64,000 bases of DNA from a virus (IMGVR_UViG_3300044639_001193:35751-99750), one strand, 5' to 3'; positions 40,279-61,112 are shown, counted from the first letter of the stretch. The notes: generated from the sequence alone by a model not told the origin. Program-made: numbers and translations.

Positions 40279-40612
40279 TTGTTGTTCTCCCCTCGGTATC
40301 CCATAGTTCTGTATCTGACTCTGCTTCTTTTACTTCACCAATTAGTCGGCTCAATACATCTCGGCAACTATCGTTAAAGTTTTCATTGAACCGTTCCCAA
40401 ATATAATCGTCATTGTCTATGCTGTTAATAATTTCTTTAACAACATCATCAGTAACAAATTTATTTGTATCTATTACTTCATCATTTTCATCTGTGTATT
40501 CCATTTGACTAAAGGCTTCTGCAATATCGTCTTTGTTGATATAAGTAACCCACACTTCATCATCAGGGTTCATACTGCTAAAGCGTTCTGCAAGGTCTTT
40601 TGCTTTTGACAT
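40265..40612 (-). CDS. Acidic paralog 2
   Basis: PDD...YINK; DTELWD near the end. Confidence 0.7.
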   Translation of the reverse strand: MSKAKDLAERFSSMNPDDEVWVTYINKDDIAEAFSQMEYTDENDEVIDTNKFVTDDVVKEIINSIDNDDYIWERFNENFNDSCRDVLSRLIGEVKEAESDTELWDTEGRTTNESK

Positions 40613-40617
40613 TGTTG

Positions 40618-40947
40618 CTACTCCTTATCCCATAGTTGTTTATCTAGTTGTTCATCATAAGTTGCTTCTGATTGTTCATTACTCCACTCGTCTAACGCTT
40701 CAATTAGTGATTGAGTAATACCGTCACCAACATCAGGGGTGTCATATTGCTGTTCTGTTGCGTACTCCCATGACTCATTGAAGGCTTCATTAACTTCTTT
40801 ATCAGTTAAGTTGTGTTCATCTTTGAGTTCTGTAAGTGTTTCCTCAACCCACTCTTTGCAGAGTTCTTTATCCCAATAAAGAACAAGTAAATGTTCTTTA
40901 GGGTCATAAGCAGATAGTTCTTTGATAATACTTTCTACTGTTGCCAT
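40618..40947 (-). CDS. Acidic paralog 1
   Basis: PKE...YWDK; ends QLDKQLWDKE. Confidence 0.7.
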   Translation of the reverse strand: MATVESIIKELSAYDPKEHLLVLYWDKELCKEWVEETLTELKDEHNLTDKEVNEAFNESWEYATEQQYDTPDVGDGITQSLIEALDEWSNEQSEATYDEQLDKQLWDKE

Positions 40948-42658: not shown

Positions 42659-44695
42659 TTACTTAACTAGATTGCGTGAGATTGCAAGGCGCACTAAAGA
42701 CTTACCTAAAGTTGTAATGTCTTTAGCAGATTGAAGTTGTGTTACCAACTCAAACGAGTGCCGTACTCCGTTTAAGTAATCGGCACTTAGATTGCGACCC
42801 TCATATAGCAACGCTTGGCAAGTAAGAACGCCAGCGTTTTTCATTTCGGTAACGGCTTGTTCTCCTGCTTCACTATCCCAAGCACCGTCGGTAATCATGC
42901 AAAGCAACTTAATTGGCTTGTCGCTCTCAGCAAGTACCTTCTTAGCGTAAAGGATTGAGTCTTTAGGATTTGTGCCACCGTTAGCACCTGAGTCGCGGAT
43001 AGTTGTACCAGCCTTCTCGTTCTTGTCATAAAGAAGTGTGGTACTGCTATCAAAGAGAACAACTGTTGTTGTTGCTTCTACTGACTCTAGTGCTTTCTTA
43101 ATAGCCCACATGGATTTGTAGGCTTCTTTAGCGTTATGCCCTGCCATTGAGGAACTTCTATCTAACAAAATTACTGCTTCAATAGCAGTAACATCATCAC
43201 GCCCCTCTTGCCACTCATCAAAACAAGTGTCTAAGTCATTACCCATTAGATAACGAGTTGCATTTATTTTTCCGTTGTCGGTTTGCTTTAACCAAGCAGG
43301 GTCGTGGTCTGCTCGCAAGCGTTCTAACTCTCGCGCAAAGGCTCTCGCACTAAGCACTAACTCAGGGCTTGCAGGAACATTTGAGTAGCGAGCCTTGTCG
43401 GGTGTCTTTGCATTACCGCCAGTTAGTTCAACCTCAACGCCAGCCTGTTTTGCAATTCGGTTAATCTCTTTTGATAGTTGCTCAACAATATCGTTCATAA
43501 CATCATTGAGAACATCAGTAACTTGTTGATTGCTACCAGTAACGCCTTGCGCGTTACCAGCACTATTGCCACCGTTACCGTCACTATCATCAACTTCATC
43601 ACTTAGTTCATCATCAAAGTCCTCAAACTCATCAGCAAACTCATCATCAGAAGTTTTCTCATCTTGGTCAAAAGAATTATCTTTTGACTTTGGTTGAGTA
43701 GCACCACCGCAACCACCTGCGTTGATTGGCTTGCTATCGCTATCTGAATTGTCTTTAGAAGTTTCATCAGACTTATCTTGGATAACAACATCAAGCACAA
43801 CATTTTTCTTTTGATTAGCGATTGCAGTTTGTTGGTCACGCTTTTGTTGTGCGGTCTTTGCAGGTCGCACACTAGAACTTTCCACGCCCTCTACTGGGCG
43901 ATTACCATGACCGTTAGGGCTATGGATACGGATAGTTACTGTTGTGCCTTCACCGTTACCGTTGCCACCGTCTTGCGGTGATTGCGGTTGCTTAGGCAAG
44001 TTGTCCAAAAGATTATTGAACGCAACGATAAGTTCTTTTGCTCTTTCGGTATCGTCATTACTTGCAAATATCAGTAAGCGATATTCGTCAATAATGGTTG
44101 CGAGTGCTTTTATGTCGCTCGGTACTTTGTATTTATCTACTGCAAGTTGTCGCAACTCAACTGGTAGATATTGCCGACCATAAACCAAAGGGAACGCTGT
44201 TGTTACTGCTTCATCATTACCGAGAAGGTAATCAACGATTGTTGCAGTAAGCCAGTTTTCAACTGTTGGTAGATAACCAGTTAGCAAAGTTTCAATACGC
44301 ATATCCTCTAGGCAATTAAAACTTTCCCAAAGTGCTTGTGCATTGTCTTGTTCTCTTATCCATATCGGCAAGGCATGACCATTTCTAGGCGTATATAAAA
44401 GATGACTCAATTCGTGGAACGATAACCCTTGCAAAGAAAGAATTGAGTGTGCAGATAGGTCAAACTTAATCTCAGATAAGTTCAACCACATTTCGCTAGT
44501 GCTTGACCAAGCAGGTGCTTTATATTCGGGTTGCTCAACGATATTAACTTTTATTCTGCGACCCGTTAAAACACTATTGACTCGCGCCAATACTGTTGCG
44601 ATTGAGTTTAAGTGCTTGCGTGTAACTTGTTTTGCTTGTTCCGCTTTATCTATTTGCTCTTGCAATAGTTGCGGTGCTGAGTTTCCTGCTCTCAC
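42659..44695 (-). CDS. CobT-like vWA protein with an HExxH domain
   Basis: FHELSH, N.LED.RIE, acidic linker, MIDAS DRSSS...GGT...TDG. Confidence 0.85.
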   Translation of the reverse strand: MRAGNSAPQLLQEQIDKAEQAKQVTRKHLNSIATVLARVNSVLTGRRIKVNIVEQPEYKAPAWSSTSEMWLNLSEIKFDLSAHSILSLQGLSFHELSHLLYTPRNGHALPIWIREQDNAQALWESFNCLEDMRIETLLTGYLPTVENWLTATIVDYLLGNDEAVTTAFPLVYGRQYLPVELRQLAVDKYKVPSDIKALATIIDEYRLLIFASNDDTERAKELIVAFNNLLDNLPKQPQSPQDGGNGNGEGTTVTIRIHSPNGHGNRPVEGVESSSVRPAKTAQQKRDQQTAIANQKKNVVLDVVIQDKSDETSKDNSDSDSKPINAGGCGGATQPKSKDNSFDQDEKTSDDEFADEFEDFDDELSDEVDDSDGNGGNSAGNAQGVTGSNQQVTDVLNDVMNDIVEQLSKEINRIAKQAGVEVELTGGNAKTPDKARYSNVPASPELVLSARAFARELERLRADHDPAWLKQTDNGKINATRYLMGNDLDTCFDEWQEGRDDVTAIEAVILLDRSSSMAGHNAKEAYKSMWAIKKALESVEATTTVVLFDSSTTLLYDKNEKAGTTIRDSGANGGTNPKDSILYAKKVLAESDKPIKLLCMITDGAWDSEAGEQAVTEMKNAGVLTCQALLYEGRNLSADYLNGVRHSFELVTQLQSAKDITTLGKSLVRLAISRNLVK

Positions 44696-44714
44696 TTTAT
44701 TTTCTCCTATCGGT

Positions 44715-46070
44715 TTAGTTGCGGATTAGTGTTGTAGTGCTGTTGAGTTCTTGCTCTAGGTCGTGGCGGTGTGCTTCTAAAAGAAGTTTCACACTTGGGC
44801 GTTCATCATCATTGAAGTTGTTTAGGAAGTTATCTACTGCATACTCGTAACCCAACTCTTGTGCAAACTTCTGAAAGTTCTTTAGCAAGCGAGTTGAGAG
44901 TGGTGTTTCGTAGATACCTTGAATTGAGTCTGCTCTCATTTGCTGAACTAGATTAAGCAAGGTTGCAGACTTAATGAACTTCTTTTCAATTTCAATGTCG
45001 TACTCAAAACGCAACTTGTGGTGAAAGCGGTCAATAAACGCTTGATTGAGTTTATTGTTGCCATGATATTTGTCGTTGTAAGAACCAACGATTAAAACAT
45101 TTTCACCTTTTGGAATTACCTCGCCCCTGTTATCAAGCAAAGTAAGTGTGCGAGTGCTATCAAGTGTTGGGAATAAAACGCCCGATTGCTTTGCAATAAT
45201 GAAAGTCAATTCGTCTAAGTGAATTACTGCATTACCTTCACGCCAGCACTCAGTAAAGCCACCGTCTTGCCAAAACAAATTACCAATTTGATTAGGCATA
45301 ATTTTTCCAAACAACTGGCTACTTTCAATTCCTGCATTGAAGTTAATGCGGTAGTAATTAAGCCCACGCTTACCTGCATAAGCCATTGTGCTTGTTGTCT
45401 TACCTGTTCCTGCTTCACCAACGATTGCAACATTGAGATTATTTATTAACGCATGGTCATAAATATCTGTTTCTGTTTTACCGTTAGCAAAAGTTCTTTC
45501 AATATAACCTGAAATCTCAGGGTCACTTAAAGAAGGAACAAAAGAAAGATTGCTTGTTGATTGAGTTGCTTTGCGTTCAATGACGATTGCAGGTGCAACT
45601 GCTACTGGTACTGGTGTAACTGTTGGTGTTGATTGCGTTGTTGTTGCTGACTTGTCGCTTCTCCCGTCGGAACGGTATTGCGATAGCAACTCAGGGTCTT
45701 GCTCTATTTGTGCATACACTTCTTTAAGCACCTCTCCGATAGTTTGCTGGCTGATTGTTTTGTCACGCAAACCAAACTGCTTTGTCAATTTCTGAATTAG
45801 CACGATTGGTTTTTCATTTGTAGTGATTGCATGAATATCTGTTGCTGTTAATGGTGTTGATAGAACTGAACCAACGATTAAAGAAGTTTCGCTATCGGCG
45901 TTACTGACGATTGCTAAATAACTATCGTTGTTCCAAGCATTATCGGTACCGCGACCACCATTGGTAGTGCGTGACCATGCAAAGTTCTTTCCGTTGTAAT
46001 TGGCGATTAGATATTGCTTTAGTGTTCCGACTTCATTTGTTTGCCCTGTAATTAGGATTGCGTGTGACAT
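44715..46070 (-). CDS. MoxR/CbbQ/CobS-like AAA+ ATPase
   Basis: GEAGTGKT, WQDG, HLDE, N..Y.G...LNQAF.DRF. Confidence 0.88.
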   Translation of the reverse strand: MSHAILITGQTNEVGTLKQYLIANYNGKNFAWSRTTNGGRGTDNAWNNDSYLAIVSNADSETSLIVGSVLSTPLTATDIHAITTNEKPIVLIQKLTKQFGLRDKTISQQTIGEVLKEVYAQIEQDPELLSQYRSDGRSDKSATTTQSTPTVTPVPVAVAPAIVIERKATQSTSNLSFVPSLSDPEISGYIERTFANGKTETDIYDHALINNLNVAIVGEAGTGKTTSTMAYAGKRGLNYYRINFNAGIESSQLFGKIMPNQIGNLFWQDGGFTECWREGNAVIHLDELTFIIAKQSGVLFPTLDSTRTLTLLDNRGEVIPKGENVLIVGSYNDKYHGNNKLNQAFIDRFHHKLRFEYDIEIEKKFIKSATLLNLVQQMRADSIQGIYETPLSTRLLKNFQKFAQELGYEYAVDNFLNNFNDDERPSVKLLLEAHRHDLEQELNSTTTLIRN

Positions 46071-48886: not shown

Positions 48887-49111
48887 ATGCTAAGTAACGA
48901 AGAGTTTAAGGTCTATGACTTTGAGGCCGCTAAGAACATGAAGAAGCACACTGGTCGTGCCGTTGCTTGGCAGGTAGACCCAGGTGAGTATCATCCAGAG
49001 ACCAAGAAGCATGATGATGAGGCTATGGCTATTCATGACGAGCCAAAGAAGCCTGACTCTAAGTTAACTAAAGCCGCCAAGTTTATTGGCCTGATGGACC
49101 CACTGCCTTAA
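48887..49111 (+). CDS. Hypothetical protein, N-terminal MLSNEEF
   Basis: TACACT-N6-ATG. Confidence 0.6.
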   Translation: MLSNEEFKVYDFEAAKNMKKHTGRAVAWQVDPGEYHPETKKHDDEAMAIHDEPKKPDSKLTKAAKFIGLMDPLP

Positions 49112-49627
49112 ATGAGCGCTAGATACTCAGAGTTTTCTGATGCCAAAGGGCGTCACTACGTTGAACATGATATGCCAGAAGATATGGCGTACTCACACCC
49201 AATTCGTTCATACGGTGAGCCACGTCGTTTATCTGTATATGACCAATCTGACCCAACCCCACGCATCGTGACACCAGAAGGTGGCGGCATAGTTGAGCAC
49301 CCAAAGGGTGAACCAGGGCTAGTTGGTTACTCAGACTTCTATCGTGAAGAACCACGTAGCACTGTCACAAACATCTCAAGAGATGAACACGGCAATGAGG
49401 TACGTACTCCCGCTCCTCCTATTGCAGATACTAATATTGGCTACATGCACGTGCTAGACCGCCACGCAGGTGGAGGTATTGGGCGCCAGATGTTTGACTA
49501 TATGCACAAGACAACACCAGAAGGTTCAGTCTTAAACGTAGGAAGAGTTGCACACGATAAAACAGAGCACATGGCAAAGAAGTTACGTGAAGAAAAGCCC
49601 AACTCAGTACATTATAAGTTGTTCTAA
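49112..49627 (+). CDS. GNAT acetyltransferase-like protein
   Basis: LVGYSDF...IGYMHV...HAGGGIGRQMFDYM (acetyl-CoA motif A). Confidence 0.6.
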   Translation: MSARYSEFSDAKGRHYVEHDMPEDMAYSHPIRSYGEPRRLSVYDQSDPTPRIVTPEGGGIVEHPKGEPGLVGYSDFYREEPRSTVTNISRDEHGNEVRTPAPPIADTNIGYMHVLDRHAGGGIGRQMFDYMHKTTPEGSVLNVGRVAHDKTEHMAKKLREEKPNSVHYKLF

Positions 49628-50029
49628 ATGAGCGCTTCAGATAACTTATCGCCTAGTCAATTTGACTCTGCTAACATGAACTTTTTTCATGTGTCCCATA
49701 AATCAAACCGAGAAGGAATTTCAACCACAGGAATTGACCCAAAAAGTTCTAAAGGTAAAACAGAGTGGAAAGGAACCAAACAAAAACCCGTACCACAATT
49801 AGCCTGGTTTACTACAAAACAGAGTGCTGTACATGACACCTATCCAATGCCTAATTCGGATATCTGGCACTCCAGTGATGTTGGAGATTGGCGTGAAAAA
49901 GAAGAACAAGGAGGCCCTTACGCTGTATCTACCCGTAAGAAAGTTTCTCCATCAAAACTTACTCGTGTTGGTCATATCACTTCCGACAACCAAGTTCATT
50001 GGCATAAAGAAGAAGATTGCCCTAAATGA
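49628..50029 (+). CDS. ADP-ribosyltransferase/Tpt1-fold-like protein
   Basis: FFHVS...NREGI...GIDP, AWFTT, DIW. Confidence 0.5.
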   Translation: MSASDNLSPSQFDSANMNFFHVSHKSNREGISTTGIDPKSSKGKTEWKGTKQKPVPQLAWFTTKQSAVHDTYPMPNSDIWHSSDVGDWREKEEQGGPYAVSTRKKVSPSKLTRVGHITSDNQVHWHKEEDCPK

Positions 50030-50352
50030 GCGCTTCAGATAACTTATCATTAGAGCAATTACAGGAATGGGTTGCCAAATCCCAGGCTGAACTAAAACAA
50101 AGTCGTGCAGAAAATAGGGCAAGTCGCAAATCAGGCTCACCTACTACTCCATCTGATTGGACAAAAGAACACGACAAGGACACAAACGTCACATACCACG
50201 TTCATGGGCCTAGCGGAGCAAAGGTTTGGAATACTTACAATACCGCTCATAAGTGGCAGATAGAAGGTTCTAGCCTTCACGGAGAAATCTTTAAAACTGC
50301 GCAAGAAGCAAAGAGCCGTGTTGAGGCTCACCATCGGCGGTGGAACGAATGA
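50026..50352 (+). CDS. Hypothetical protein, N-terminal MSASDNLS
   Basis: ATGA coupling; F.T..EAK..VE. Confidence 0.65.
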   Translation: MSASDNLSLEQLQEWVAKSQAELKQSRAENRASRKSGSPTTPSDWTKEHDKDTNVTYHVHGPSGAKVWNTYNTAHKWQIEGSSLHGEIFKTAQEAKSRVEAHHRRWNE

Positions 50353-50948
50353 GCGCATCAGATAACTTAAGTAGTATGCAAATGTCTAAATGGCATCGTA
50401 AAGAGAAAATCTCATTTTTATCCCAAAACGATAAGGGTGGAGTGAGTGCTTCGCTATATCCTCCTTCTACCCACTTTTATCCACACCATGCTTATGACGA
50501 ACATGGTGTACCTACTTTGTTTGACCATTCTCACCTTCCTCCTTCAATAGATAACCTTTTTGCTCATGGACACTCTGGTGCGGATGTAGCAACTCACCTT
50601 GGGACTATGGCTCTTGAATCGTTGCATAGATACGGAGAGTTGCCTAGTACAGACGTCCGTACCAGCCTAAGCAAAGATAGTGTCAAGTTAGTAAACAAAG
50701 TCAATGAAAAAATGGGTAAAAAGCCTGAGTCTATTGACCCCTATAACCCTGCAACCAAAGAAGATGCAGTACACGAGGTTGAAGGCTCCAAACGAGTTCA
50801 TGCTCATTTAGGTGAGGAAAAAGACCCAAGACACTCCAAGATAGATGCTTCAACCGTTGGCTCAGGACGAGCACTGATGCGTGACATGCTTGTTCCTAAA
50901 AAGAACCTAAGCACCAAGCAGTTTAACCAACCAGAGTTGAATCTTTAA
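50349..50948 (+). CDS. Hypothetical protein, N-terminal MSASDNLS, C-terminal NLSTKQF
   Basis: ATGA coupling places the start at 50349. Confidence 0.65.
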   Translation: MSASDNLSSMQMSKWHRKEKISFLSQNDKGGVSASLYPPSTHFYPHHAYDEHGVPTLFDHSHLPPSIDNLFAHGHSGADVATHLGTMALESLHRYGELPSTDVRTSLSKDSVKLVNKVNEKMGKKPESIDPYNPATKEDAVHEVEGSKRVHAHLGEEKDPRHSKIDASTVGSGRALMRDMLVPKKNLSTKQFNQPELNL

Positions 50949-50974
50949 TGGCTGCGCCCTGATAGAGTGGGGCT

Positions 50975-51106
50975 ATGAATATAAAAGCAGGATGGGGCAA
51001 GTGGGACTCTTGGGGTTTCGGCATATCTTATTGTCACTACGATAATTCACTAACAATTAATTTCATACACTGGTATGCATACGTAGAGATATGGACAAAA
51101 CACTAA
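50975..51106 (+). CDS. Aromatic-rich microprotein (43 aa)
   Basis: TGA-TAGAGT-N6-ATG; TAATG coupling to the next gene. Confidence 0.5.
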   Translation: MNIKAGWGKWDSWGFGISYCHYDNSLTINFIHWYAYVEIWTKH

Positions 51107-51318
51107 TGTGGTCTTGGGTATTAGCCGTAATCGGTGTAGCAGGTATCTACTTTGTTGGGCGCAAGACTATTTGGGGTTGGTTAATACTCTGCGCCAATGA
51201 AGTCTTATGGATTACCTATGCAATTATCACAGAACAATATGGTTTTATATTCTCCGCCATTGCTTATGCCGCAGTTTACATTAAGTCATTCATCCACTGG
51301 AAGAGAGAAGAAGCATGA
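51106..51318 (+). CDS. Small membrane protein, PnuC-like half transporter
   Basis: WGW......LWI.YA....QYGF; 3 helices. Confidence 0.55.
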   Translation: MWSWVLAVIGVAGIYFVGRKTIWGWLILCANEVLWITYAIITEQYGFIFSAIAYAAVYIKSFIHWKREEA

Positions 51319-51444
51319 AGATACCTAAGAACACTGCAAGTGAGTATCACGAGTTAAAGAAATTAAAGAAACAAGTAACACAGAAAGTTAAGAAAGATAC
51401 TCGTGGGACATTGACCGACCCATCAGCCCATCCAAAGGGTAAGA

Positions 51445-51630
51445 ATGAAACTAGGTAATTACGAACTTCGTAAGCCATGGGTGAAGATGGTTGACCTGCC
51501 CATTGAGGCAGAGTTGTACATTGCCATTCGCAAATCAGTTTTAGATGATGTGATGAAGGAGTTTCACGATGCTGCTAATCGTGTACTAGAACTTAACGAG
51601 GAACGTGTTAAGGAGCACTATGCTAAATAA
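51445..51630 (+). CDS. Hypothetical protein
   Basis: 61-aa ORF. Confidence 0.5.
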   Translation: MKLGNYELRKPWVKMVDLPIEAELYIAIRKSVLDDVMKEFHDAANRVLELNEERVKEHYAK

Positions 51631-51765
51631 CATTTGGCTAGGGATACTCATTGGCATTGTGATAGGTAGAGGTTTTGACCTATGGGTAGATATTAGAGAC
51701 AGAAGAGCGGTTACTGAGGAAAAAAGCACCGCCAGCGTTTTGCCAACGGCAGAGGGAGATGGGCA

Positions 51766-52179
51766 ATGATAAAACAATCACAGCATAAAATTAATGGCAA
51801 GATTAACGAGCAGTTTAAAAATCATTTAGAACAAGAGGGTTGGACGACCACCACCTATCCAGATTACAACCACCTCAAAGAAGAGCACGCCAAAAAGAGA
51901 GAAGTACTTAATAAAAATGTAAAGACCTTTGGTAACTCAGTTACACTTGCCGCTCCCATGGTCGTGCAAGATGGGGCCGTCGCAATTGCCTATGAAAACG
52001 TGCTCAAAGATTATTTTAACGCAAAGGTAAAAAACTTTCCGCTCTGGTCAGGTTTGCCCGACATTACCGTTAAGCCACAACCCAATTTAGATATGATGAT
52101 TTCTTGGCACGTGAATGTTCCCAAGCATTTAGTGATTAACCCTGATGACTTGCTGGAAGAAGACCTCTGGAACTCATGA
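51766..52179 (+). CDS. Hypothetical protein
   Basis: GAGGGAG RBS. Confidence 0.55.
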   Translation: MIKQSQHKINGKINEQFKNHLEQEGWTTTTYPDYNHLKEEHAKKREVLNKNVKTFGNSVTLAAPMVVQDGAVAIAYENVLKDYFNAKVKNFPLWSGLPDITVKPQPNLDMMISWHVNVPKHLVINPDDLLEEDLWNS

Positions 52180-52655
52180 CATTTGATTATCACGCCGCTA
52201 TGACGCAGGGGCACTCCTACAACGAGATGGTTGCCCAAAGGCTCCAAGGTGAGAAAATCGGGTGCGAGGTTCCTGAGTTAGAGTTGGTCTCTACTAAAGA
52301 AGAGATACAGCGCATGACCGAGAACGAGAAAGACATCATCTTAGATAACGGCCTCATCCTTGAGGTGAAGTCACGTAACTTAGGTTTCTCAGAGGACCCA
52401 GCGCTGTTCTGGCAGAAAGATATCTATGTAGATACCGTCTCAGGTTATGAGGCTAAGAAGGTAAAGCCATACGCCTATGTGATGGTTAGCCAGAAGTCAG
52501 GCAACATGCTAGTTGTCCACTCCAACACCAAAGATAAGTGGTTTAAGAAAACTGTCACTGACCCTTACCGCAAAGTCACCGATGTCTTCTACAAGATTGA
52601 ACGGCAACACCTGATAACTTGGGCATCGCTTGTTGAGGATTTAAAAGCCAAGTAA
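52176..52655 (+). CDS. PD-(D/E)XK nuclease-like protein
   Basis: EKDI......LEVKSR. Confidence 0.6.
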   Translation: MTFDYHAAMTQGHSYNEMVAQRLQGEKIGCEVPELELVSTKEEIQRMTENEKDIILDNGLILEVKSRNLGFSEDPALFWQKDIYVDTVSGYEAKKVKPYAYVMVSQKSGNMLVVHSNTKDKWFKKTVTDPYRKVTDVFYKIERQHLITWASLVEDLKAK

Positions 52656-52670
52656 TGGCACAATACTCAC

Positions 52671-52886
52671 ATGGCCCGTCAAAAAGTTCCAGGTACTGAT
52701 ATCAACAAGCCTATTAAGGCTGAGACAAACTTGCCCAATAAAAGCAAGATGACCCCTGAGAAGGTAGCAGAACAACAGAACCTTCTTAAGAAGTTAAAGA
52801 CTCCTTCAAGCAAAAAGGTTAAAAAGGGTGCTATGACTAAGAAGGCTAATACCAATAACCCGAACAGGAAACCAAAGAATGGCTAA
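52671..52886 (+). CDS. Lys-rich protein
   Basis: TGG-CACAAT-N6-ATG. Confidence 0.55.
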   Translation: MARQKVPGTDINKPIKAETNLPNKSKMTPEKVAEQQNLLKKLKTPSSKKVKKGAMTKKANTNNPNRKPKNG

Positions 52887-52986
52887 TTGCATTAAGTGTG
52901 AGCATTCTATGTACCTCAATGTTTGTTTGGAAGATACTTGTAAGTGCATCTGTGAGTCTGACAACTCCTACGAAAGCCAATCATGA
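52879..52986 (+). CDS. Cys-rich microprotein (35 aa)
   Basis: CIKCEH......C....CKC.C; overlaps both neighbours. Confidence 0.45.
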   Translation: MANCIKCEHSMYLNVCLEDTCKCICESDNSYESQS

Positions 52987-53252
52987 CAGTTAAGGCATAC
53001 GGCCCTTACGCCGATAAATCCAAAGATGGTCGTAAGAAGATGACCATCGTTGATAACAAGACTGGTAAACATACTTCTACTAATGCTGCTCGTTACAAGA
53101 AAGAAAAAGCATTGGGGCGCAAACTGCCAAAGAACGTGGACGTTGACCACGCAGATAACAACAAGCACCACGACGGTGCAAAGAATTTAAAAGTTATGAG
53201 CCACTCCGACAATGTTGCTAAGGGCAACAAGCATCGGACAAAGAAAAAATGA
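52983..53252 (+). CDS. HNH endonuclease-like protein
   Basis: LGRKL....DVDH.DNNK......NL..MS.S.N. Confidence 0.7.
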   Translation: MTVKAYGPYADKSKDGRKKMTIVDNKTGKHTSTNAARYKKEKALGRKLPKNVDVDHADNNKHHDGAKNLKVMSHSDNVAKGNKHRTKKK

Positions 53253-53533
53253 GCAAACTAACTAACCCTCAGCAATTTGGCAGTTCTATGAATGCTCATG
53301 AGATTCTAGAGTCTGTTGAGATGGCGCCAGGTAAAGACTTGAACGAGGTAAGCGCTGCAGCGTGGGCATCAGGTTTAGGGTCTAGTATTCAAAAGCATTG
53401 GATTACTGAACCACTAACCATTTGGCACGAGAAAGAGCGGGCTAGACTTGCTGATGGTCATCACCGTCTTGCAGTTGCTCACGATATTGACCCAGCAAAA
53501 CCAATGCCAGTTCGTCACCAGTACAAAGACTAA
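53249..53533 (+). CDS. ParB/Srx N-terminal domain protein
   Basis: L..SI......EPL....LADGHHRLAVA. Confidence 0.7.
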   Translation: MSKLTNPQQFGSSMNAHEILESVEMAPGKDLNEVSAAAWASGLGSSIQKHWITEPLTIWHEKERARLADGHHRLAVAHDIDPAKPMPVRHQYKD

Positions 53534-53549
53534 AGAAAGAAGAGAATAA

Positions 53550-53861
53550 ATGGCTGACTATCACGAAGACCCACAGTACTTAGCGCATGAGACCGCCTAC
53601 ATGAAACTTCATCCTATAGGTAACGAAAGGGTTGGAAAAGGAATGGGTCCTCAGCACCCGTCAGCCATTCACCAACATTTAGCAAACGATTACGGCGGAG
53701 TACGAACTGCTAATCACGTTCGTGGAGATATACGTCATGGACTTAATATGTTAAAAGAAAGTGGAGTCACTAAACATGGCGGTATGCTAACTGCAGAAGA
53801 TATGGGACATAGTGCTCGTGCACACCTGTACTTGGAAGCACAATCTAAACTTAAAAAGTAA
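53550..53861 (+). CDS. Hypothetical protein
   Basis: 103-aa ORF. Confidence 0.55.
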   Translation: MADYHEDPQYLAHETAYMKLHPIGNERVGKGMGPQHPSAIHQHLANDYGGVRTANHVRGDIRHGLNMLKESGVTKHGGMLTAEDMGHSARAHLYLEAQSKLKK

Positions 53862-53885
53862 ATAATCTTAAGAAAGGTAAAACCC

Positions 53886-54629
53886 ATGGCTGAACAAGGA
53901 ACAGCAGCAGCAATCATTGAAGTTGCTAAAAAAGAATTGGGCGTTATTGAAGGCCCTAAAGATAATGAGACAAAGTACGGCAAGTTTACAAAAGCCAACT
54001 TCCTACCGTGGTGTGGTTCCTTTGTTATGTGGTGTGCTAAAGAAGCAGGCGTAAAAGTTCCTAACACAGTGTCTACTGTGGCTGGTGCTGGCGCTTTTAA
54101 AAAGATGAAGACTTGGTTTGACGCAGACTGCGGGCAGTCACCACAACCAGGAGATATCTTGTATTTTGATTTCCCAGGAGACGGTGTAGACCGTATCTCA
54201 CATGTTGGTATTTGCACAGGCGTTGATTCTGATGGCGTTGTAACCGCCATTGAGGGAAACACTTCTGGCAAGAAGAGAGGTGACCAACGGAATGGTGGCG
54301 AAGTTTGCGCCCAAGTGCGTGCCTACAAGCCCAACAAAAAGAAAGTTTTAGTCTCTATCGTAGGTTGGGGTCGCCCTAACTATAAGGGCAACGAGGTTGA
54401 GGCTGAGGTACCTGTCTCAGACGCTCCAGCCTTCCCAGGCAAGATTAAACCTGGTGACAAGGGTGAATCTGTCAAGATTGTACAGACGGCTCTAGGATTG
54501 GCTGCAGACGGCGATTACGGCCCAGCAACCAAGAAAGCAGTTGTTGCATTTCAAGACAATAACGACCTAGTGGACTCAAACGGCATCATCGGCCCTAAAA
54601 CATGGGCAGAACTGGTCAAATTGCTCTAA
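53886..54629 (+). CDS. Endolysin (CHAP + peptidoglycan-binding domain)
   Basis: PWCGSFVMW, PQPGDI..FD, HVGI, IEGNT; ADG.YGP.T..AV..FQ...GIIGPKTW. Confidence 0.9.
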   Translation: MAEQGTAAAIIEVAKKELGVIEGPKDNETKYGKFTKANFLPWCGSFVMWCAKEAGVKVPNTVSTVAGAGAFKKMKTWFDADCGQSPQPGDILYFDFPGDGVDRISHVGICTGVDSDGVVTAIEGNTSGKKRGDQRNGGEVCAQVRAYKPNKKKVLVSIVGWGRPNYKGNEVEAEVPVSDAPAFPGKIKPGDKGESVKIVQTALGLAADGDYGPATKKAVVAFQDNNDLVDSNGIIGPKTWAELVKLL

Positions 54630-54643
54630 TCGGACATTACACA

Positions 54644-54678
54644 ATAACCCCCTTAGACCTGATAGGCTAGGGGGGTTA
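54644..54678 (+). terminator. Stem-loop after endolysin, containing an extended -10 (TGA-TAGGCT)
   Basis: ATAACCCCCT...AGGGGGTTAT. Confidence 0.55.
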
Positions 54679-54695
54679 TCTGTGAAGGAGCAGTC

Positions 54696-55244
54696 ATGAC
54701 CACAATAGTTGCGGTTCAATACAACGATAAATGCGTTATTGCTGCTGATAACCAGGTTACTGGTGACGGCGGACGTCGTTACAACCATCCTGATATGAAA
54801 AAGATTTCACAACGTGGGGCTTTCCTTGTTGCAGGCAGTGGTGAAGTTCAACCCTGCGATGTTGTTCAACACTTTTGGGTTCCACCAAAACTAACAATTA
54901 AAGAGTCTGAAGACATTTATCACTTCATGATTACCAAAGCAATGCCTTCTCTTAGAAAATGCTTAACTGATAATGGTTATGATTTCAATGAAGGTAAGGG
55001 TGAAGGAAAAGCGGAAGAAAACCGTTTTAGTTTCATTATGGCTGTTGGTGGAGAACTATTTGATATTGGGGATGACTTATCTGTAATTCGTTCAGGAAGT
55101 GGAATTTACGGAGTGGGTTCTGGGGCTGATTACGCAATGGGCGCCCTATACGCAGGAGCAACTCCAGAAAAAGCCGTAGAGATTGCGGCTAAATTAGATG
55201 TGAATACATCAGGGCCTGTACAGGTTGTGGAACAATACAAGTAA
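54696..55244 (+). CDS. HslV/proteasome-beta-like Ntn threonine peptidase
   Basis: MTTIVAV, AAD.QVT, K(K)I, AGSG, GVGSG..YA.GAL, A...D..T. Confidence 0.85.
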   Translation: MTTIVAVQYNDKCVIAADNQVTGDGGRRYNHPDMKKISQRGAFLVAGSGEVQPCDVVQHFWVPPKLTIKESEDIYHFMITKAMPSLRKCLTDNGYDFNEGKGEGKAEENRFSFIMAVGGELFDIGDDLSVIRSGSGIYGVGSGADYAMGALYAGATPEKAVEIAAKLDVNTSGPVQVVEQYK

Positions 55245-55261
55245 CCTGATAGGGTTAGAAC

Positions 55262-55576
55262 ATGGACAAAATACTTTACAAATCAAACAAAGAAAAGAAG
55301 CGCCTCTCTAGAGCGCTGGAACAAGAGCAGTTTCTAGAAGAAAAGAAGACAGAGCCATTCCTAAAAGCATGGGAAGAGGCACAAGTAAAAGCGGCGACTA
55401 TTCAGTCAGCCCTAGATTATGCGGTTGAACAATACAGCCAGCACAAAGATGAATTGGAAGAGAAAGTGCAAAAAGAAATAGAAGAACAGATTAGTTTACG
55501 ACAAGAAGAGATTAAAGATTTCCTTATGACAGAAAAAGAACGTTACTTAGCCAGTATTGGCATTTTAGAAGACTGA
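55262..55576 (+). CDS. Coiled-coil hypothetical protein
   Basis: TGA-TAGGGT-N6-ATG. Confidence 0.6.
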   Translation: MDKILYKSNKEKKRLSRALEQEQFLEEKKTEPFLKAWEEAQVKAATIQSALDYAVEQYSQHKDELEEKVQKEIEEQISLRQEEIKDFLMTEKERYLASIGILED

Positions 55577-55590
55577 TAATAGGTATCTAA

Positions 55591-55953
55591 TTGAGGGGGA
55601 AAGAGAACGGTATGAGGAATCTTATGAAAAGTTTAAACAATGTGCTAATGCGTATTGTGGCAGTTTTTGCTGCCAGTGGTTTAAGTGTTATTGGTGCTGG
55701 TGCAATTGCTGGTATCTCAACTGTTAAGGCTGTAACAGTTGCAGGGTTAACAGCAGTTGCTGCTGTTATTGAGAAGTTGGCTCGTGCTTTTATGGACGAT
55801 GGAAAACTAACTCTAGACGAAATCAACGCAGCGTTTTCAACCGTTGATAAAGGCGCAAAGACTGTGGCAGATGTAGAAGTAGAAGAACGTCAAGCAAAGG
55901 CTAAAACAGCAAAAACTGTTCCTGCTAAAGAAGACGACCCAGACTACAACTAA
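55591..55953 (+). CDS. Holin-like membrane protein
   Basis: Two hydrophobic helices; DDGKLT.DEINAAF; near the endolysin. Confidence 0.5.
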   Translation: MRGKENGMRNLMKSLNNVLMRIVAVFAASGLSVIGAGAIAGISTVKAVTVAGLTAVAAVIEKLARAFMDDGKLTLDEINAAFSTVDKGAKTVADVEVEERQAKAKTAKTVPAKEDDPDYN

Positions 55954-56126
55954 TTTCCAGTTTTATAAAAACCTGAGCCTTTAAACTGAAGGCCAAAAGG
56001 TGTAAAGACACGTTGAAGAGCGTAGCCGCACGTATCGCAGACATAATTAGGTTCTGCGTCGTGAATGCTACGCTCTTTCTCGTAGTCTAAGTCACACTGT
56101 ATACAAGCGTATTCGTACTTTGGCAT
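55950..56126 (-). CDS. FmdB-family zinc-ribbon protein (58 aa)
   Basis: MPKYEYAC..C...C..CG....RV......FKGSGFY.T. Confidence 0.8.
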   Translation of the reverse strand: MPKYEYACIQCDLDYEKERSIHDAEPNYVCDTCGYALQRVFTPFGLQFKGSGFYKTGN

Positions 56127-57022
56127 TACTGTATTAAAACATACTTTCCAGTAGCGTACTCATTAGACGCTGTTGTTGTAGTAGCAAGAATAGTTGCATA
56201 GGTCTCATCTACTGAGGACTTTCTATTTAAAAGCCATAACCCTGCAATAGATGCAGTTGCGTTAGATGTGCCAACAGTAAACTTGGTAGTTCCGTTAGCA
56301 TTAGTTACAAACCAACGACCATTAGCGTAGAAGTCAATAGCAGAAGAAATATTGGTGTAACGGGCAATGTAAGGCTTTGCTTTGCTATCCCAAGCAAAAG
56401 GCTCAGAACCAGACCATGGATTATCGGTGGCTCCTACCGCAATGACGTCCGCAATGCAGGCAGGTGAGTTAATTGCTGTTTTATTACTGTTGTTTCCTGT
56501 TGCTGAAATGACAGCAACATTGCGTGCTTTGAGTGTTGCAATTTGCTCAACCATGCCTGCAGGGACTTTACAGTTAGCAAACACTCTACCCTGAGAAATG
56601 CTTACTACTGCAATGTTGTATTTTGCCTGATTAGCAATGACCCAATCAAGAGCCATCTTTACAGAGTCCAAGGAGTACAGACCAGCGTTACCATTTGGAT
56701 TTACCCCAACAATACGAATTGGCAATAACTTTGCTGAAGGATTCACCTTTGCAACAATAGAGAGCATCTGTGTTCCGTGGTCAAGAGCCTTGTCCTTAAA
56801 AGCAGGAAGTAATGATGCTCCAGCACCTTCCATAGAAGTTTTACCATTTGCACATTTGTACGACTCAACAACACAATACTCAGCAACAATTCTGTCGCCA
56901 AAGAGTGATGGGGTTGTGCCTGTATCAATAACTGCAATTGATGGTGCTACTTCTGCATGTGTTGGTGCTGCTGTAGTACCTATTAAAAATATCGTTACAA
57001 ATAAATAAATAACTTTTTTCAT
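56126..57022 (-). CDS. Secreted subtilisin-like S8 peptidase
   Basis: Signal peptide; IAVIDTG, HGTQM, ATGN, GTSNA. Confidence 0.88.
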   Translation of the reverse strand: MKKVIYLFVTIFLIGTTAAPTHAEVAPSIAVIDTGTTPSLFGDRIVAEYCVVESYKCANGKTSMEGAGASLLPAFKDKALDHGTQMLSIVAKVNPSAKLLPIRIVGVNPNGNAGLYSLDSVKMALDWVIANQAKYNIAVVSISQGRVFANCKVPAGMVEQIATLKARNVAVISATGNNSNKTAINSPACIADVIAVGATDNPWSGSEPFAWDSKAKPYIARYTNISSAIDFYANGRWFVTNANGTTKFTVGTSNATASIAGLWLLNRKSSVDETYATILATTTTASNEYATGKYVLIQ

Positions 57023-57072
57023 TTTCCCTCTTCCGTTGTTTGTGGTCTTAGACTACAGACCTAAGCCTTTCT

Positions 57073-57543
57073 TTACAAATTTTCTCGGTAGTCCAAGGCA
57101 TCTACGCTTAGGCCATGCTGGTAGCGCCACCGCCAGTTGTTGGTGCGCTCAGCGGTGACCTTCCTGTGACAGTTAGAGCAACGGACTTCCCCATACTCAA
57201 GTTCAGCCTTGATACGCTCAAGCGGTAGCACGTCTCGTATGGCGTTGTTTATCCCAAAGTTCTTTTCCAAAAGATGGTCAAAGTCCAAAACCACAATGTC
57301 TGTCTCTCCGCAGTCCACGCAAGGATGCGTACTGTAGTACTCGGCTAAAAAGAGTCTAATAACTTTTTTGCGTTTCTTACGGTTTTCATAAATATTGTCT
57401 AACCTGTCTACGCGGGTATCCTCGTAGTTTTCTCGTTGGTAGTCGCCTTGACAGGTTCTGCAATAAGGTTGCACACCACTGGCTCTTTTCTTATTAAAAT
57501 CTGTCAATGGTTTTTCTGTTTTGCAACGATTGCAGGTTTTCAT
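57073..57543 (-). CDS. HNH endonuclease-like protein
   Basis: CNRC..EK..DF, CVDCGE.D..VLDFDH, RCSNCHR. Confidence 0.8.
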   Translation of the reverse strand: MKTCNRCKTEKPLTDFNKKRASGVQPYCRTCQGDYQRENYEDTRVDRLDNIYENRKKRKKVIRLFLAEYYSTHPCVDCGETDIVVLDFDHLLEKNFGINNAIRDVLPLERIKAELEYGEVRCSNCHRKVTAERTNNWRWRYQHGLSVDALDYRENL

Positions 57544-57587
57544 GGGTTCACCATACAGAACAATCTTAAAGGGTGCAAAATAGATAC

Positions 57588-57749
57588 ATGTTATCTCAGG
57601 CAGAGTTTAATCCCATGACACAAAGCAAAGAAGCCATGCCAGAGAGTTCTAAGTTTGATGGTCCTAAAGGTTTAACTATTTCTAACGTTCAAGATAAATT
57701 TGCTGCTAACAGTCATACGTCCTTACCAAAACCAGGATTTAGTTCATGA
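57588..57749 (+). CDS. Microprotein, N-terminal MLSQAEF (53 aa)
   Basis: CAAAAT-N6-ATG; ATGA coupling to the next gene. Confidence 0.5.
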   Translation: MLSQAEFNPMTQSKEAMPESSKFDGPKGLTISNVQDKFAANSHTSLPKPGFSS

Positions 57750-57949
57750 ACGATGTAATTGAACAAGTAGAGTTAACAGCCACTGACCGCTGCGACAAGT
57801 GCGGTGCACGAGCAATGGTTAGGGCAACGTTAAAAACAGGTGAACTGTACTTCTGCGGACACCACGCAAAAGAAACTGGCTACACACTAGTCCTTCAGGC
57901 TTTAGAGGTTTATGACCCAGAAGGACTTTTAAAATATGAAGACCGATAA
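57746..57949 (+). CDS. Actinobacterial-type Zn-binding protein
   Basis: LTA.DRCD.CGA.A.V.......L.FCGHH. Confidence 0.7.
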   Translation: MNDVIEQVELTATDRCDKCGARAMVRATLKTGELYFCGHHAKETGYTLVLQALEVYDPEGLLKYEDR

Positions 57950-58081
57950 TGAATTAACACAGGTTGACTACTACAAGTTATGGCAACCGATTTCTGGTCA
58001 ACAGTTTTACGGGCTAGGAATGTATGGAGCAGTTAAACAAGATATGGGTAAGTACGATAAAGAGAATTTGGATAAAACATC

Positions 58082-58393
58082 ATGAGTAATCTTAGTCACC
58101 AGTTTGATGGTCAGAAGGCAGCCTGGGAAGACATACAGCGTCGTCGTTATGCTCGCAAACAAGGTGTCTCAGGATTCATTGGTAACGGCTATTGGTTCTT
58201 TAACTACCCAAACATGGTAGGTGGAATTGGTTCTGGAACAATCATTCAATCCCAAACTGGAGAAGATAAAAAAGATTTAGGACAAAACTTAGGTGTTGGT
58301 GCAGAAAACCTTGACGCAATGGCTGGAAACTCTACGGGTATGGGCGAAGGCGGAACCGCAGTAACTGGTGACACAGGTGGAGCGGTGGCGTGA
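58082..58393 (+). CDS. Gly-rich protein, N-terminal MSNLSHQF
   Basis: 103-aa ORF. Confidence 0.55.
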   Translation: MSNLSHQFDGQKAAWEDIQRRRYARKQGVSGFIGNGYWFFNYPNMVGGIGSGTIIQSQTGEDKKDLGQNLGVGAENLDAMAGNSTGMGEGGTAVTGDTGGAVA

Positions 58394-58652: not shown

Positions 58653-61112
58653 TTGAAAGCACTGCGTACTATCGCAGCACTATTTGTCGCATTATCCGCA
58701 TCCTTATTACCTTCAATATTTGCAGAATCTGCCCACGGTAATTCACCTAACCCTGGGTTAACCGCCGAAGTCTATGACGTACTTGGGCAAAATGGTGCTC
58801 CCTTTATTCCACAAGGACAATCACCTGTGCTTGTTACTACGGTTCCTAACGTTTCTTTTGACTGGGATAGCGGAAGTGTTCTTGGCGGCCCAAGCGAAGA
58901 TGTAATTGTTCGCTTTATTGGGTACATAACAAGCCCAACAACACAAACTGTTTTATTTTCAACAGATGCAGATGATGGTACTCGTCTTTACATTGACGGA
59001 AGTCTTATAGCGGATGATTGGGTAGATAAAGGTGGTGGAGGAACTACAAGCGCACCCATCTCTTTTACCGCAGGAGTTTCCCGTTCTATTGAACTTATGT
59101 ACTACGAAAATGGTGGGGGAGCGAGAGCCGTTCTTTTGTGGGACCAAGGAGGTGGAACGAATGTTGTTCCTTCTTCAGCATTTACAACTTCACCAACAGT
59201 AGTTATACCACCAGAGGTACTAACCATAGGTGCGCCAACAAACTTAACAGTAGTTGATGGTCCTACTTCTGCATTACTCACCTGGAACGCTCCTACGGAT
59301 GGAAATAGACAACCAGAACGCTACGCTATTAGTTTTACGTGTGATGGTTGCAATGGTTGGGGAATTGCCACAGGAAACGTGGGAGACGCTAATGCACTAA
59401 ATACGACGATAACAATTAACCATTCGTTGCTTGAGTCTTTAAAGCCAAGCGGTACGGTGTGGTCATTTCATATTAGGTCAGATAACGATACATTAGCACT
59501 TTACTCTGCAAACTCAAATGTTGTTACATTAAAAATTGGAAAAACTGCAGAAGAAATTGCTGCAGAGCAGGCAGCATCTGAGGCCGCTATAGCAGCCGCT
59601 ACCGCAGAAGCAGCAAGGATTACAGAAATAGCAAGATTAGCAGAAGTTGCACGACTAGCAGAAGTTGCCAGATTAGCAGAGGTTGCAAGATTGGCTGAAG
59701 TTGCAAGACTTGCAGAAGTTGCAAGATTGGCTGAAGTAGCACGACTTCAAGCAGAAGCAGCAGCAGTATTGGCGGCACAGCAAGAGGCTGCAAGAATCGC
59801 AGCCATCACTGCAGAAGTTGCCAGACTCGCAGAAGTTGCCAGACTCGCAGAAGTTGCCAGATTAGCAGAAGTGGAAAGACTTGCAGAAATTGCTAGGTTA
59901 GCAGAAGCAGCAAGGATTACAGAAATAGCAAGATTAGCAGAAGTTGCACGACTAGCAGAGGTGGCAAGGCTTGCAGAAGCAGAAAGACTTGAGGCTGCAA
60001 GAATAGCAGCAGCGGTTGAGGCTGCTCGCGTAGCAGCAGAAGTTGAGGCTGCAAGAATTGCTGCTGAAGTTGAGGCTGCAAGACTAGCAGCAGAAGCAGC
60101 AGCCAAAGCAGAGGCTGCAAGAATTGCTGCAGAACAAGAGGCTGCTCGTGTAGAAGCAGAAAGAATTGCAGCGGAAGAAGCCGCAAAGAAAGCAGAAGCA
60201 GAAAGACTTGCTGCAGAAGCAGCAGCAGCGAAGGCTGAAGCAGAACGAATTGCTGCTGAAGAAGCAAAAGCCAAAGCAGAAGCAGAAGCAGAAGCAAAAG
60301 CCAAAGCAGAAGAAGAACGATTAGCAGCGGAAGCAAAGGCTAAGGCTGAAGCGGAAGCAAAAGCCGCAGAAGAAGCAAAGGCCAAAGCCGATGCAGAAGC
60401 CAAGGCTGCTGAAGAAGCAAGACTAAAAGCAGAAGCAGAAGCAAAGGCTGCGGCAGATGCTGCTGCAAAAGCAGAGGCAGACCGTCTAGCAGCAGAAGCA
60501 GCATCAAAGGCAAGGGCTGAAGCAGATGCAAGGGCTGCTGCTGAAGCAGCACGAGTTGCTGAGGCAAAAGCAGCAGCAGAAAAACTTGCAGAACAGGAAG
60601 CGCTGAAGAAGGCGGCAGAAGAAGGTAAACTAAGTGAAGAACAAAAAACCGTTATTGCAACTGAGTTAATTGCATCAGTTGCTCCTGGAGAATCAATTTC
60701 CGCTGCAGCAATCAAAGAAGCAGGCATTGAGTATAAGGATTTACCTCCAGAGACTCCCGTAGATGTTCGTACCGATGAGCAAGGAAACGCAGTAGTTATT
60801 TCTGCTGAAGTTGCTGCACAAGTTGAACTGCTACAAGACCCTGGAGCCTTACTTGCCGAAGCATTTTCTGACCCAGGAGCAGCATTAGCAGCCCTTGGAA
60901 GTATTGGCGCCGACATGTCTACCGAAGAACGGGAAGAGGCAACCGACATGGTTGTTGCAACGGTTGTTGCCGCAGGTGCTGCTATGAACGCAGTTGGTGC
61001 AGCAGCAGGTTCTACTGGAAGTTCATCTTCTGGTGGAAGTAGTGGAGGCGGAAGTTCTGGTGGTGGAGGCTCATCAGGTGAGAGTAAAGGCGTAAGGAGA
61101 CGAAAGCCATGA
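58653..61112 (+). CDS. Exported PA14 + Fn3 protein with an Ala/Glu coiled-coil stalk
   Basis: Signal peptide; ADDG.RLYIDG..I.DDW, YYENGGGA; APTNL..L.W.AP; AEVARL repeats; hydrophobic and basic tail. Confidence 0.8.
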   Translation: MKALRTIAALFVALSASLLPSIFAESAHGNSPNPGLTAEVYDVLGQNGAPFIPQGQSPVLVTTVPNVSFDWDSGSVLGGPSEDVIVRFIGYITSPTTQTVLFSTDADDGTRLYIDGSLIADDWVDKGGGGTTSAPISFTAGVSRSIELMYYENGGGARAVLLWDQGGGTNVVPSSAFTTSPTVVIPPEVLTIGAPTNLTVVDGPTSALLTWNAPTDGNRQPERYAISFTCDGCNGWGIATGNVGDANALNTTITINHSLLESLKPSGTVWSFHIRSDNDTLALYSANSNVVTLKIGKTAEEIAAEQAASEAAIAAATAEAARITEIARLAEVARLAEVARLAEVARLAEVARLAEVARLAEVARLQAEAAAVLAAQQEAARIAAITAEVARLAEVARLAEVARLAEVERLAEIARLAEAARITEIARLAEVARLAEVARLAEAERLEAARIAAAVEAARVAAEVEAARIAAEVEAARLAAEAAAKAEAARIAAEQEAARVEAERIAAEEAAKKAEAERLAAEAAAAKAEAERIAAEEAKAKAEAEAEAKAKAEEERLAAEAKAKAEAEAKAAEEAKAKADAEAKAAEEARLKAEAEAKAAADAAAKAEADRLAAEAASKARAEADARAAAEAARVAEAKAAAEKLAEQEALKKAAEEGKLSEEQKTVIATELIASVAPGESISAAAIKEAGIEYKDLPPETPVDVRTDEQGNAVVISAEVAAQVELLQDPGALLAEAFSDPGAALAALGSIGADMSTEEREEATDMVVATVVAAGAAMNAVGAAAGSTGSSSSGGSSGGGSSGGGGSSGESKGVRRRKP
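59584..60620 (+). repeat. Degenerate coding repeats (AEVARL / AEAEAKA)
   Basis: 18-bp periodicity; duplicated block near 59603 and 59901. Confidence 0.85.

Follow-up and report, generated by a model that had tools for sequence, protein, structure and literature searches.

The window studied here is the whole 64,000-nucleotide stretch of virus DNA IMGVR_UViG_3300044639_001193:35751-99750, which covers bases 35751-99750 of one virus contig 99,750 bp long; the coordinates given below are window positions unless another genome or locus is named with them. The genome (G000) is complete and circularly assembled (127-bp exact repeat at the contig ends) and has a G+C content of 43%. It is that of a phage of myovirus type, encoding TerL, a portal, a coiled-coil scaffold, a major capsid protein (MCP), collagen-like fibres and a tail sheath. 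Its non-structural markers are a tyrosine integrase, a CHAP + PG_binding_1 lysin followed by an HslV-like Ntn peptidase, and a WhiB-like gene, whiB being a marker of actinophages (PMC6802176). Nearly all genes lie on the + strand, except for a block at 34.3-47.2 kb. Past a 1.7-kb non-coding divergent gap, the first + strand genes form an array at 48.9-51 kb, from which the + strand run continues through the lysis cassette, over the contig junction and into the structural genes. Proteins encoded in this array and elsewhere in the genome carry a short, usually N-terminal peptide, the tag, with the full consensus M-S-A-x-D-N-L-[S/N]-x-x-[Q/L]-F. For comparison we used 67 IMG/VR loci anchored on the HslV-like gene, 26 loci anchored on the tag DNA pattern (fetched loci are denoted by L and a number) and five further complete genomes (G001-G005). 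The tag-bearing group is one of widespread, uncultured lake and soil phages of actinobacteria.

Each of the peptides listed by a first-pass annotation of the window was found at the position given for it, including the looser forms at 49112, 53249 and 58082, and two members were added to that list (57936 and 23378); all lie on the + strand. After the divergent gap, the rightward array begins with a 74-residue open reading frame (ORF; 48887-49111) that starts with the short E-variant MLSNEEF, and its orthologues start MSQENLSQEQF-KVYDFEAA (L008) and MSNLNPNQF-KVLDF (L016). The canonical tag, MSASDNLSPSQF, stands at the head of a 133-residue ORF (49628-50029; position-matrix score 24.7) with an Arr/Tpt1/PARP-like mini ADP-ribosyltransferase (ART) body. 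It is followed by a 108-residue ORF (50026-50352) with the Q-L variant MSASDNLSLEQL (matrix score 17.6), whose LSLEQL is kept in orthologues, and by a 199-residue ORF (50349-50948) that bears MSASDNLSSMQM at its N-terminus and a C-terminal copy, KKNLSTKQFNQPELNL, with NLSTKQF at 50904-50924 (matrix scores 19.8 and 14.3, respectively). This C-terminal copy is conserved in L002 and L060.

Further members lie outside the array. A 94-residue ParB-like protein with a DGHHR motif (53249-53533) starts with the degenerate tag MSKLTNPQQF. The 53-residue core small protein at 57588-57749 starts MLSQAEF, and its family is present in 23 loci with a tag form in every case (MISNQQF, MLSDPQF, MNANLSSSQF). 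Close by, a 49-residue small protein (57936-58085) has an internal copy, WQPISGQQF (matrix score 16.1), and a relative in L039 that starts MENSNLSAAQF, while a 103-residue Gly-rich protein (58082-58393) starts MSNLSHQF, the tag minus one residue, where its relatives start MSNLSNTQF, MSNLSRKQF and VSNLNSAQF. On the other side of the minus-strand block, an 89-residue ORF (23105-23374) starts MSILSSSEF (orthologues: MSSLSSSQF in G001, MPLSSTQF in G002) and adjoins a 178-residue Gly/Asn-rich ORF (23378-23914) that starts MAGGTNNYSATQNW, a degenerate copy (NNYSATQNW); the G001 orthologue of the latter, 81% identical, starts MAGGVNNLSPQQNW (NNLSPQQNW, matrix score 18.3). Orthologues or family members with the canonical Q form exist for the E-variants at 48887, 57588 and 23105 as well as for the looser 58082 and 53249. 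Pfam and PHROGs scans of the tagged proteins of the window gave almost no matches, and a word-based homologue search with 49628 returned a single near-identical match only.

The remaining ORF of the array (49112-49627, 171 residues) starts MSARYSEF and contains a GNAT motif-A-like stretch, HAGGGIGRQMF. Its place among the tag variants, where the first-pass annotation had put it, is uncertain, since the G003 orthologue likewise begins MSRYAEF. A possible second start motif, M-S-R-x-x-E-F, was seen on two further families (49112 and the relatives G002 22800, L008 8096 and L079 9646); its examples MSARYSEF, MSRYAEF, MSRASEFEAAH and MSRREEFEASH may be either a decayed tag form or a separate motif.

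The strict motif LSxx[EQ]F occurs seven times in the six-frame ORFs of the whole genome; five occurrences lie in real genes, four of these at most six residues from the ATG. Within the first 16 residues it was found in 4 of 165 ORFs of this genome against 0.03 expected from residue shuffles, and none of 2000 shuffles reached four ORFs. A de novo pattern count in this genome alone gave top counts of 4 against the usual 3 in controls and is not compelling by itself, so that independent sequence provided the decisive test. Across about 100 related loci and the five complete genomes, 78 unique proteins carried the strict motif in their first 16 residues, compared with 0.6 expected. The long form reads M-S-A-[S/Q/E]-[D/E]-[N/H]-L-S-x-x-Q-F, and the short forms are MSNLSxxQF, MLSxxEF and MISxxQF. 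A position matrix refined on these sequences, with the core [D/S]-N-L-[S/N]-x-x-[Q/L]-F, matched 266 times in 2864 unique ORF products and 4-9 times (about 6) in shuffled proteomes. Most of these matches (192) lay in the first 12 residues; another 40, for the most part attributable to miscalled starts or to short leaders, were at residues 13-45, and the last 25 residues held 19. The motif proposed in the first-pass annotation is therefore enriched at termini above shuffled background both in this genome and in its relatives, and it is conserved in homologues, the families retaining tag forms in related loci. Almost all seemingly tagless homologues proved to have variants, such as NLSxxLF joined directly to HGT, or NLNxxQF, and members of these families within the lineage are hardly ever without the tag. 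An N-glycosylation sequon (N-L-S) was considered and rejected, about a fifth of the copies having N-L-N.

The same annotation had described the rest of each protein as unrelated, and the wider sample agrees. The 138 unique tagged proteins fell into 33 BLAST clusters, including a few held together by matches that are loose and probably spurious, and an all-against-all hhalign comparison with the tag removed gave no pair above 77% probability and four weak links only. Judged by these comparisons, the tag is borne by about 20-30 families without detectable mutual homology. Chance and paralogy as sources of the tag were ruled out by the shuffles, the independent loci and the profile comparisons.

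The commonest tagged family, to which 49628 belongs, aligns as tag-[FY]HG[ST]...A[ST][ST]...VYxVxP, and the His of the [FY]-H-G-[ST] first motif is invariant in 101 ART-family sequences. Members match Pfam Arr-ms (8.7e-6) and PARP, and the family profile gave weak matches to Tpt1 and diphtheria toxin chains. A model of one member, based on 101 sequences (pLDDT 88.3, pTM 0.80), retrieved the rifampin ADP-ribosyltransferase Arr with Foldseek (9iaf and 2hw2, E 3e-5, TM 0.62), followed by other ART toxins. The AlphaFold model of 49628 itself (16 sequences) was of low confidence (pLDDT 46.7), and its membership therefore rests on the family profile (E 4.6e-20). The family shares with Arr (PDB 2hw2 and 9iaf; PF12120) the mini-ART fold and the [FY]HG[ST] first motif; unlike the tagged ARTs, Arr has no N-terminal tag, and identity is 17-18%. 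A second family lies above the Pfam GNAT threshold in relatives (Acetyltransf_1, 30.6 bits versus a cut-off of 20.7). The window protein 49112 had no Pfam match, and its hhalign match to the tagged GNAT cluster was confined to the motif-A stretch (E 0.012). ParB-like proteins form the third family to which a name could be given (ParB_N, E 0.023, with the DGHHR motif); 53249 belongs to it by the hidden Markov model of tagged ParB-like cluster 0 (E 3.3e-19), in an alignment that spans DGHHR. Of the three enzyme names in the first-pass annotation, ART and ParB-like can thus be kept, and GNAT is plausible, being assigned to 49112 by motif only and found as a tagged family in relatives.

In ParB-like relatives of 53249 (L016:475-816, L014:999-1340, L049:5936-6277 and others) the tag is directly followed by Q-L-x-M-F, in the forms QLAMF, QLDMF and QLPMF, which resemble the bacterial sliding-clamp-binding pentapeptide QL[SD]LF; 53249 itself is without Q-L-x-M-F. 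Clamp-binding motifs begin with Q. The tag was rejected as such a motif on account of its residue order, and the Q-L-x-M-F of the ParB-like proteins is a feature separate from it.

To distinguish conservation of the peptide from conservation of the DNA, codons were compared over 34 distinct long-form starts. Leu7 is encoded by six codons and Ser8 by all six, from both the TCN and the AGY boxes; Gln11 is CAA or CAG in 16 and 18 cases, the Phe TTT or TTC in 18 and 6, and Ala3 uses three codons. The tag is retained from 40% to 67% G+C; neither phages of 58-67% G+C nor a bacterial gene of 62% G+C shows any change in it. Because synonymous codons vary at the conserved residues and the tag is kept across this G+C range, selection on it acts at the peptide level. 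The observation in the first-pass annotation that dispersed copies use different codons accordingly holds across loci, with the exception of three tandem genes of the window, which are identical at 22-23 of the 23 nucleotides of their starts, suggesting recent exchange at the tag-coding stretch. These near-identical starts would suit a view of the tag as a by-product of the DNA, whether a recombination linker, a translation-initiation element or the remnant of a duplicated ancestral N-terminus without peptide function, as would the hypervariable tandem arrays in which tagged genes lie and the use of AGC for Ser2 in 27 of 30 cases, which ATGA overlaps with the upstream stop account for only in part. 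We consider this view scarcely credible, since across loci each conserved residue draws on all its synonymous codons, with serines from both boxes, the tag is also present at C-termini and internally, it is retained at 62-67% G+C, and the tagged bodies have different folds. As the sole explanation it is already largely refuted by the codon data, and a DNA-level signal as the only cause was rejected on the codon tables; DNA-level processes may add to cassette exchange, yet cannot account for the conservation.

The tag need not be N-terminal. Within the ParB-like family some members start with it, whereas several others have it close to the C-terminus, in the ending ...DGHHR-x5-NLNPxQF-x6-10. 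Internal and C-terminal copies were found in addition. Strand 1 of the confident ART model starts at residue 12; residues 1-10 form coil at a mean pLDDT of 60, next to a core above pLDDT 90, so that the tag is predicted to be an unstructured terminal extension. None of the residues after the final Phe is conserved in the position matrix. Tagged proteins are single-domain and small (median 114 residues, longest in the loci 202), and they are no more basic than other small ORFs. Their genes form arrays: 200 of 289 tagged genes have a tagged neighbour, compared with 58 expected, and every one of the 147 tagged genes of the anchored loci points the same way as the lysis cassette, a cassette that leads into the structural genes in the circular assembly. 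The array of the window had no BLAST homologue in three complete relatives, which marks its locus as hypervariable. An untagged 113-residue cupin (RPWGxYxVL...) is encoded in 19 loci and lies within a tagged array in 16 of them (L019:916, L026:7276, L068:1576 and 13 more).

One enzyme might recognize the tag much as the leader of a ribosomally synthesized and post-translationally modified peptide is recognized, and change its conserved Asn, Ser or Gln covalently. Invariant polar residues (D, N, S, Q) are indeed unusual for a purely hydrophobic docking motif, and the small cupin gene, at most four genes from a tagged gene in those 16 loci, would be a candidate. No untagged enzyme family, however, was found always to adjoin tagged genes in the 96 loci examined, and the cupin occurs in only 19 of the 96 and is not among the ORFs annotated in this window. 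We regard such a modification site as very unlikely.

A search with the ART-family profile gave 738 relatives (E <= 0.001) among 1.84 billion representatives. Among the best 150 of these, 123 are small proteins, 106 of which start with the tag; the remaining 27 are giant proteins of 570-3995 residues with 3-8 ART stretches, and none of them is tagged. A Pfam scan of two giants, P0002 (3995 residues) and P0004 (3164 residues), showed Arr-ms and GNAT repeats together with an SprT-like peptidase, and the 27 giants look like a variant of the polyvalent proteins built mostly from two enzyme types. All ART relatives that were looked up are metagenomic, and two tagged ARTs had no match by tblastn in 50,697 cultured-phage records.

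The tag follows one capsid lineage. The three longest of five contigs selected by the tag pattern have an MCP of the G000 type (83-91% identity), tag-bearing contigs of 60-67% G+C have an MCP of the same lineage (61-63% identity), and every tag-bearing phage contig long enough to test falls into this single lineage. No tag was found in the genomes G004 and G005, which share with G000 only the lysin, the HslV-like peptidase, the holin, the PA14 protein, RNR, WhiB and a few small genes; G004 encodes a canonical polyvalent protein of 4200 residues with ArdC-N, MPTase-PolyVal, UvrD and RNase_T. In G001, a 326-residue Gly/Ala-rich protein with a LysM-like stretch (L101:9091-10071, - strand, equal to G001 29091-30071) starts MAALNPNQF and is encoded inside the structural gene block, with small basic proteins on one side and the tail sheath region on the other. 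The DNA pattern of the long-form tag was found in one of 185,579 species genomes, a 6.6-Mb high-G+C Actinomycetota metagenome-assembled genome (CAWGAE01). It holds two 99%-identical copies of a 1.9-kb segment flanked by transposase genes, one of them near a Prim-Pol gene, and the segment encodes a 159-residue tagged protein starting MSAQDNLS[RK]AQF (L096:5665-6144 and L097:3055-3534; gene G+C 0.62).

Taken together, these observations lead us to put forward, tentatively and at rather less than an even chance, that the tag is a terminal docking peptide for one common partner, most likely serving to load its bearers into the virion. A short unstructured peptide, usually at the extreme N-terminus and sometimes at the C-terminus, is attached by the lineage to a changing set of small, mutually unrelated effector-type proteins, and would bring all of them to a single partner conserved in the lineage. 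The likeliest such partner would be part of the virion during its assembly, be it the capsid interior, the scaffold or the portal. The tagged proteins would then be packaged and reach the host along with the DNA, a non-covalent "solo" equivalent of the giant polyvalent proteins, for which other phages use the same domains. We infer the single partner, its membership of the virion and the injection from several lines of evidence. A virion partner is favoured because polyvalent proteins are the form in which other phages deliver the domains that are tagged here (PMC5512222); because untagged concatenates and tagged solo proteins look like two solutions of one problem; because the tag follows one capsid lineage over a wide range of host G+C; because unrelated phages with the same lysis module have no tag; and because the tagged LysM protein sits among structural genes of G001. 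The first-pass annotation had proposed loading into the head or routing to a common partner: one common partner fits the data well, and the support for the capsid in that role is circumstantial. In a more general form, which is possible though doubtful, a peptide of 7-12 residues at either terminus would be a general cargo label, so that any small protein gaining NLSxxQF would be loaded into the head and injected.

The closest precedent in form is phage T4, whose internal proteins IPI, IPII and IPIII have a short N-terminal capsid targeting sequence (CTS) (Rao & Black 2010, PMC3012670). As with the CTS, a peptide of about 10-12 N-terminal residues is the sole conserved part of diverse, fast-changing small anti-host proteins encoded in variable gene arrays, and the tag is likewise a short N-terminal peptide on unrelated small proteins. 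The CTS is N-terminal only, is bound by the scaffolding core and is cut off by the prohead protease gp21. Unlike it, the tag has an unrelated sequence and occurs at C-termini too, as the 19 matrix matches in the last 25 residues and the ParB-like proteins with a tag at either end demonstrate. A T4-type mechanism, the model cited in the first-pass annotation, is made less likely by these C-terminal copies and by the failure to find a prohead protease gene in the head-block ORFs scanned.

In content the tagged set is closer to the polyvalent proteins of phages and conjugative elements, among which ART, GNAT and ParB are hub domains (Iyer, Burroughs, Anand, de Souza, Aravind 2017, PMC5512222). 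In that survey, polyvalent proteins are predicted to be packaged, P1 DdrB and T4 Alt are given as shown in the head, and solo versions of polyvalent domains next to late genes are mentioned. The repertoire of ART, GNAT beside ART, and ParB-like domains and the logic of conflict effectors are common to both systems (PMC5512222). A polyvalent protein is one polypeptide of 2-15 domains, usually with an MPTase or MuF-type anchor (PMC5512222), whereas here each domain is a separate small protein with a 12-residue tag. No MPTase or MuF domain was found among the G000 proteins scanned, which were part of the ORFs. The portion of the survey drawn on does not describe a shared short tag on solo forms (PMC5512222). 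A third comparison is offered by encapsulins, since the cysteine desulfurase cargo of family 2 encapsulins has an LARLANEFFS motif in a disordered N-terminal domain (Nichols et al. 2021, PMC8049743). Encapsulin cargo peptides direct unrelated cargo into an HK97-fold shell and resemble the tag in being short conserved motifs within a disordered extension at a terminus; there is also a loose likeness in the L-x-x-x-[EQ]-F pattern, a weak resemblance in sequence. Encapsulins differ in being cellular compartments without DNA, and binding of the tag to the phage capsid protein is hypothetical.

Several observations weigh against loading into the virion. No prohead protease was detected in ten head-block ORFs scanned with PHROGs (TerL, portal and MCP included), those between portal and capsid genes among them, and the scaffold protein has no tag-like motif. 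In several ARTs the final Phe of the tag already belongs to strand 1, which leaves no linker. The co-occurrence of tag and capsid lineage may be mere shared ancestry, and the MCP of this lineage was not detected in the Actinomycetota genome with the tagged gene. The array also follows a long non-coding divergent region, a typical place for early genes; a promoter and terminator scan together with shared intergenic k-mers was uninformative on early versus late transcription.

Some of these points suit a linear motif that docks early takeover enzymes, not packaged, onto a conserved actinobacterial host hub or substrate in transcription, translation or replication. Motifs for host hubs are typically disordered and active from either terminus, as the tag would be; the array lies in the usual early-gene place beside a regulatory-looking gap of 1.7 kb; an unchanged tag over phages of 40-67% G+C implies a very conserved partner; and one bacterial genome retains a tagged gene although this capsid lineage was not detected in it. 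The clamp-binding-like Q-L-x-M-F after the ParB-like tag shows, in addition, that host-type peptide motifs do occur at these termini. Set against this, G004 and G005 share the lysin, holin, PA14 protein and WhiB, so that their hosts are probably similar, yet they have no tag, and the long form is present in only one of the 185,579 species genomes. To our knowledge, the tag fits no bacterial hub-binding consensus. A host hub is a serious but rather unlikely partner.

The lysis-type block of the window (53886-55953) consists of the CHAP + PG_binding_1 lysin, the HslV-like Ntn peptidase, a 104-residue coiled protein and a membrane protein. The peptidase (54696-55244; phrog_1040, E 2.6e-33) starts MTTIV and has an intact Thr2, and a gene for it is present in all tag-bearing genomes tested, including those of high G+C (25% identity). 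Its presence in the same gene block as the tagged genes raises the possibility that the tag is a degron or timing signal, read by this peptidase or by a host AAA+ protease, that would clear potentially toxic enzymes at a set stage; terminal disordered peptides are typical degrons. The HslV-like genes of the untagged G004 and G005 (41-42% identity) make the peptidase an unlikely partner, no HslU- or ClpX-like unfoldase was identified, the sole AAA+ protein found being a MoxR-type one (AAA_5) with a VWA protein as its partner, and a degron offers no reason for untagged giant concatenates of the same domains. We therefore judge this explanation improbable.

If virion loading is correct, the tag would achieve without covalent linkage, and in modular fashion, what polyvalent proteins achieve; these giants and the tagged single proteins would be two linked delivery routes for the same enzymes, and injected effectors could be predicted from sequence across hundreds of uncultured actinophages. 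As an address label it would make the effector set of a large uncultured phage group recognizable from sequence alone; the actinobacteria that these phages infect belong to the most numerous freshwater bacteria. Like the T4 CTS before it, so small a peptide for loading an HK97-type capsid with cargo would make a useful tool. Even with a host hub or a protease as partner, the tag would still unite about 10% of the ORFs in these regions as one functional class, and the tag peptide is itself a direct handle on the partner.

Other features of the window were recorded besides the tagged genes. In an 819-residue protein (58653-61112) that is conserved in G002-G005, a signal peptide and a PA14 domain precede Ala-rich heptad-like repeats (ARLAEV, AKAEAE), which extend over several hundred residues. 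The lysis block, with its proteasome-type peptidase, and the PA14 protein are shared with the otherwise unrelated G004 and G005. On the - strand, four tandem paralogous small genes (39673-40947; 97-115 residues) share the N-terminal pattern ...L..[YL].PD..L.V..WDKE and form a separate expanded family. A MoxR-type AAA_5 ATPase (451 residues) adjoins a 678-residue protein with a weak VWA match, also on the - strand (42659-46070), in what resembles a chaperone-like pair, and the same minus-strand block also contains the integrase and an HNH protein.

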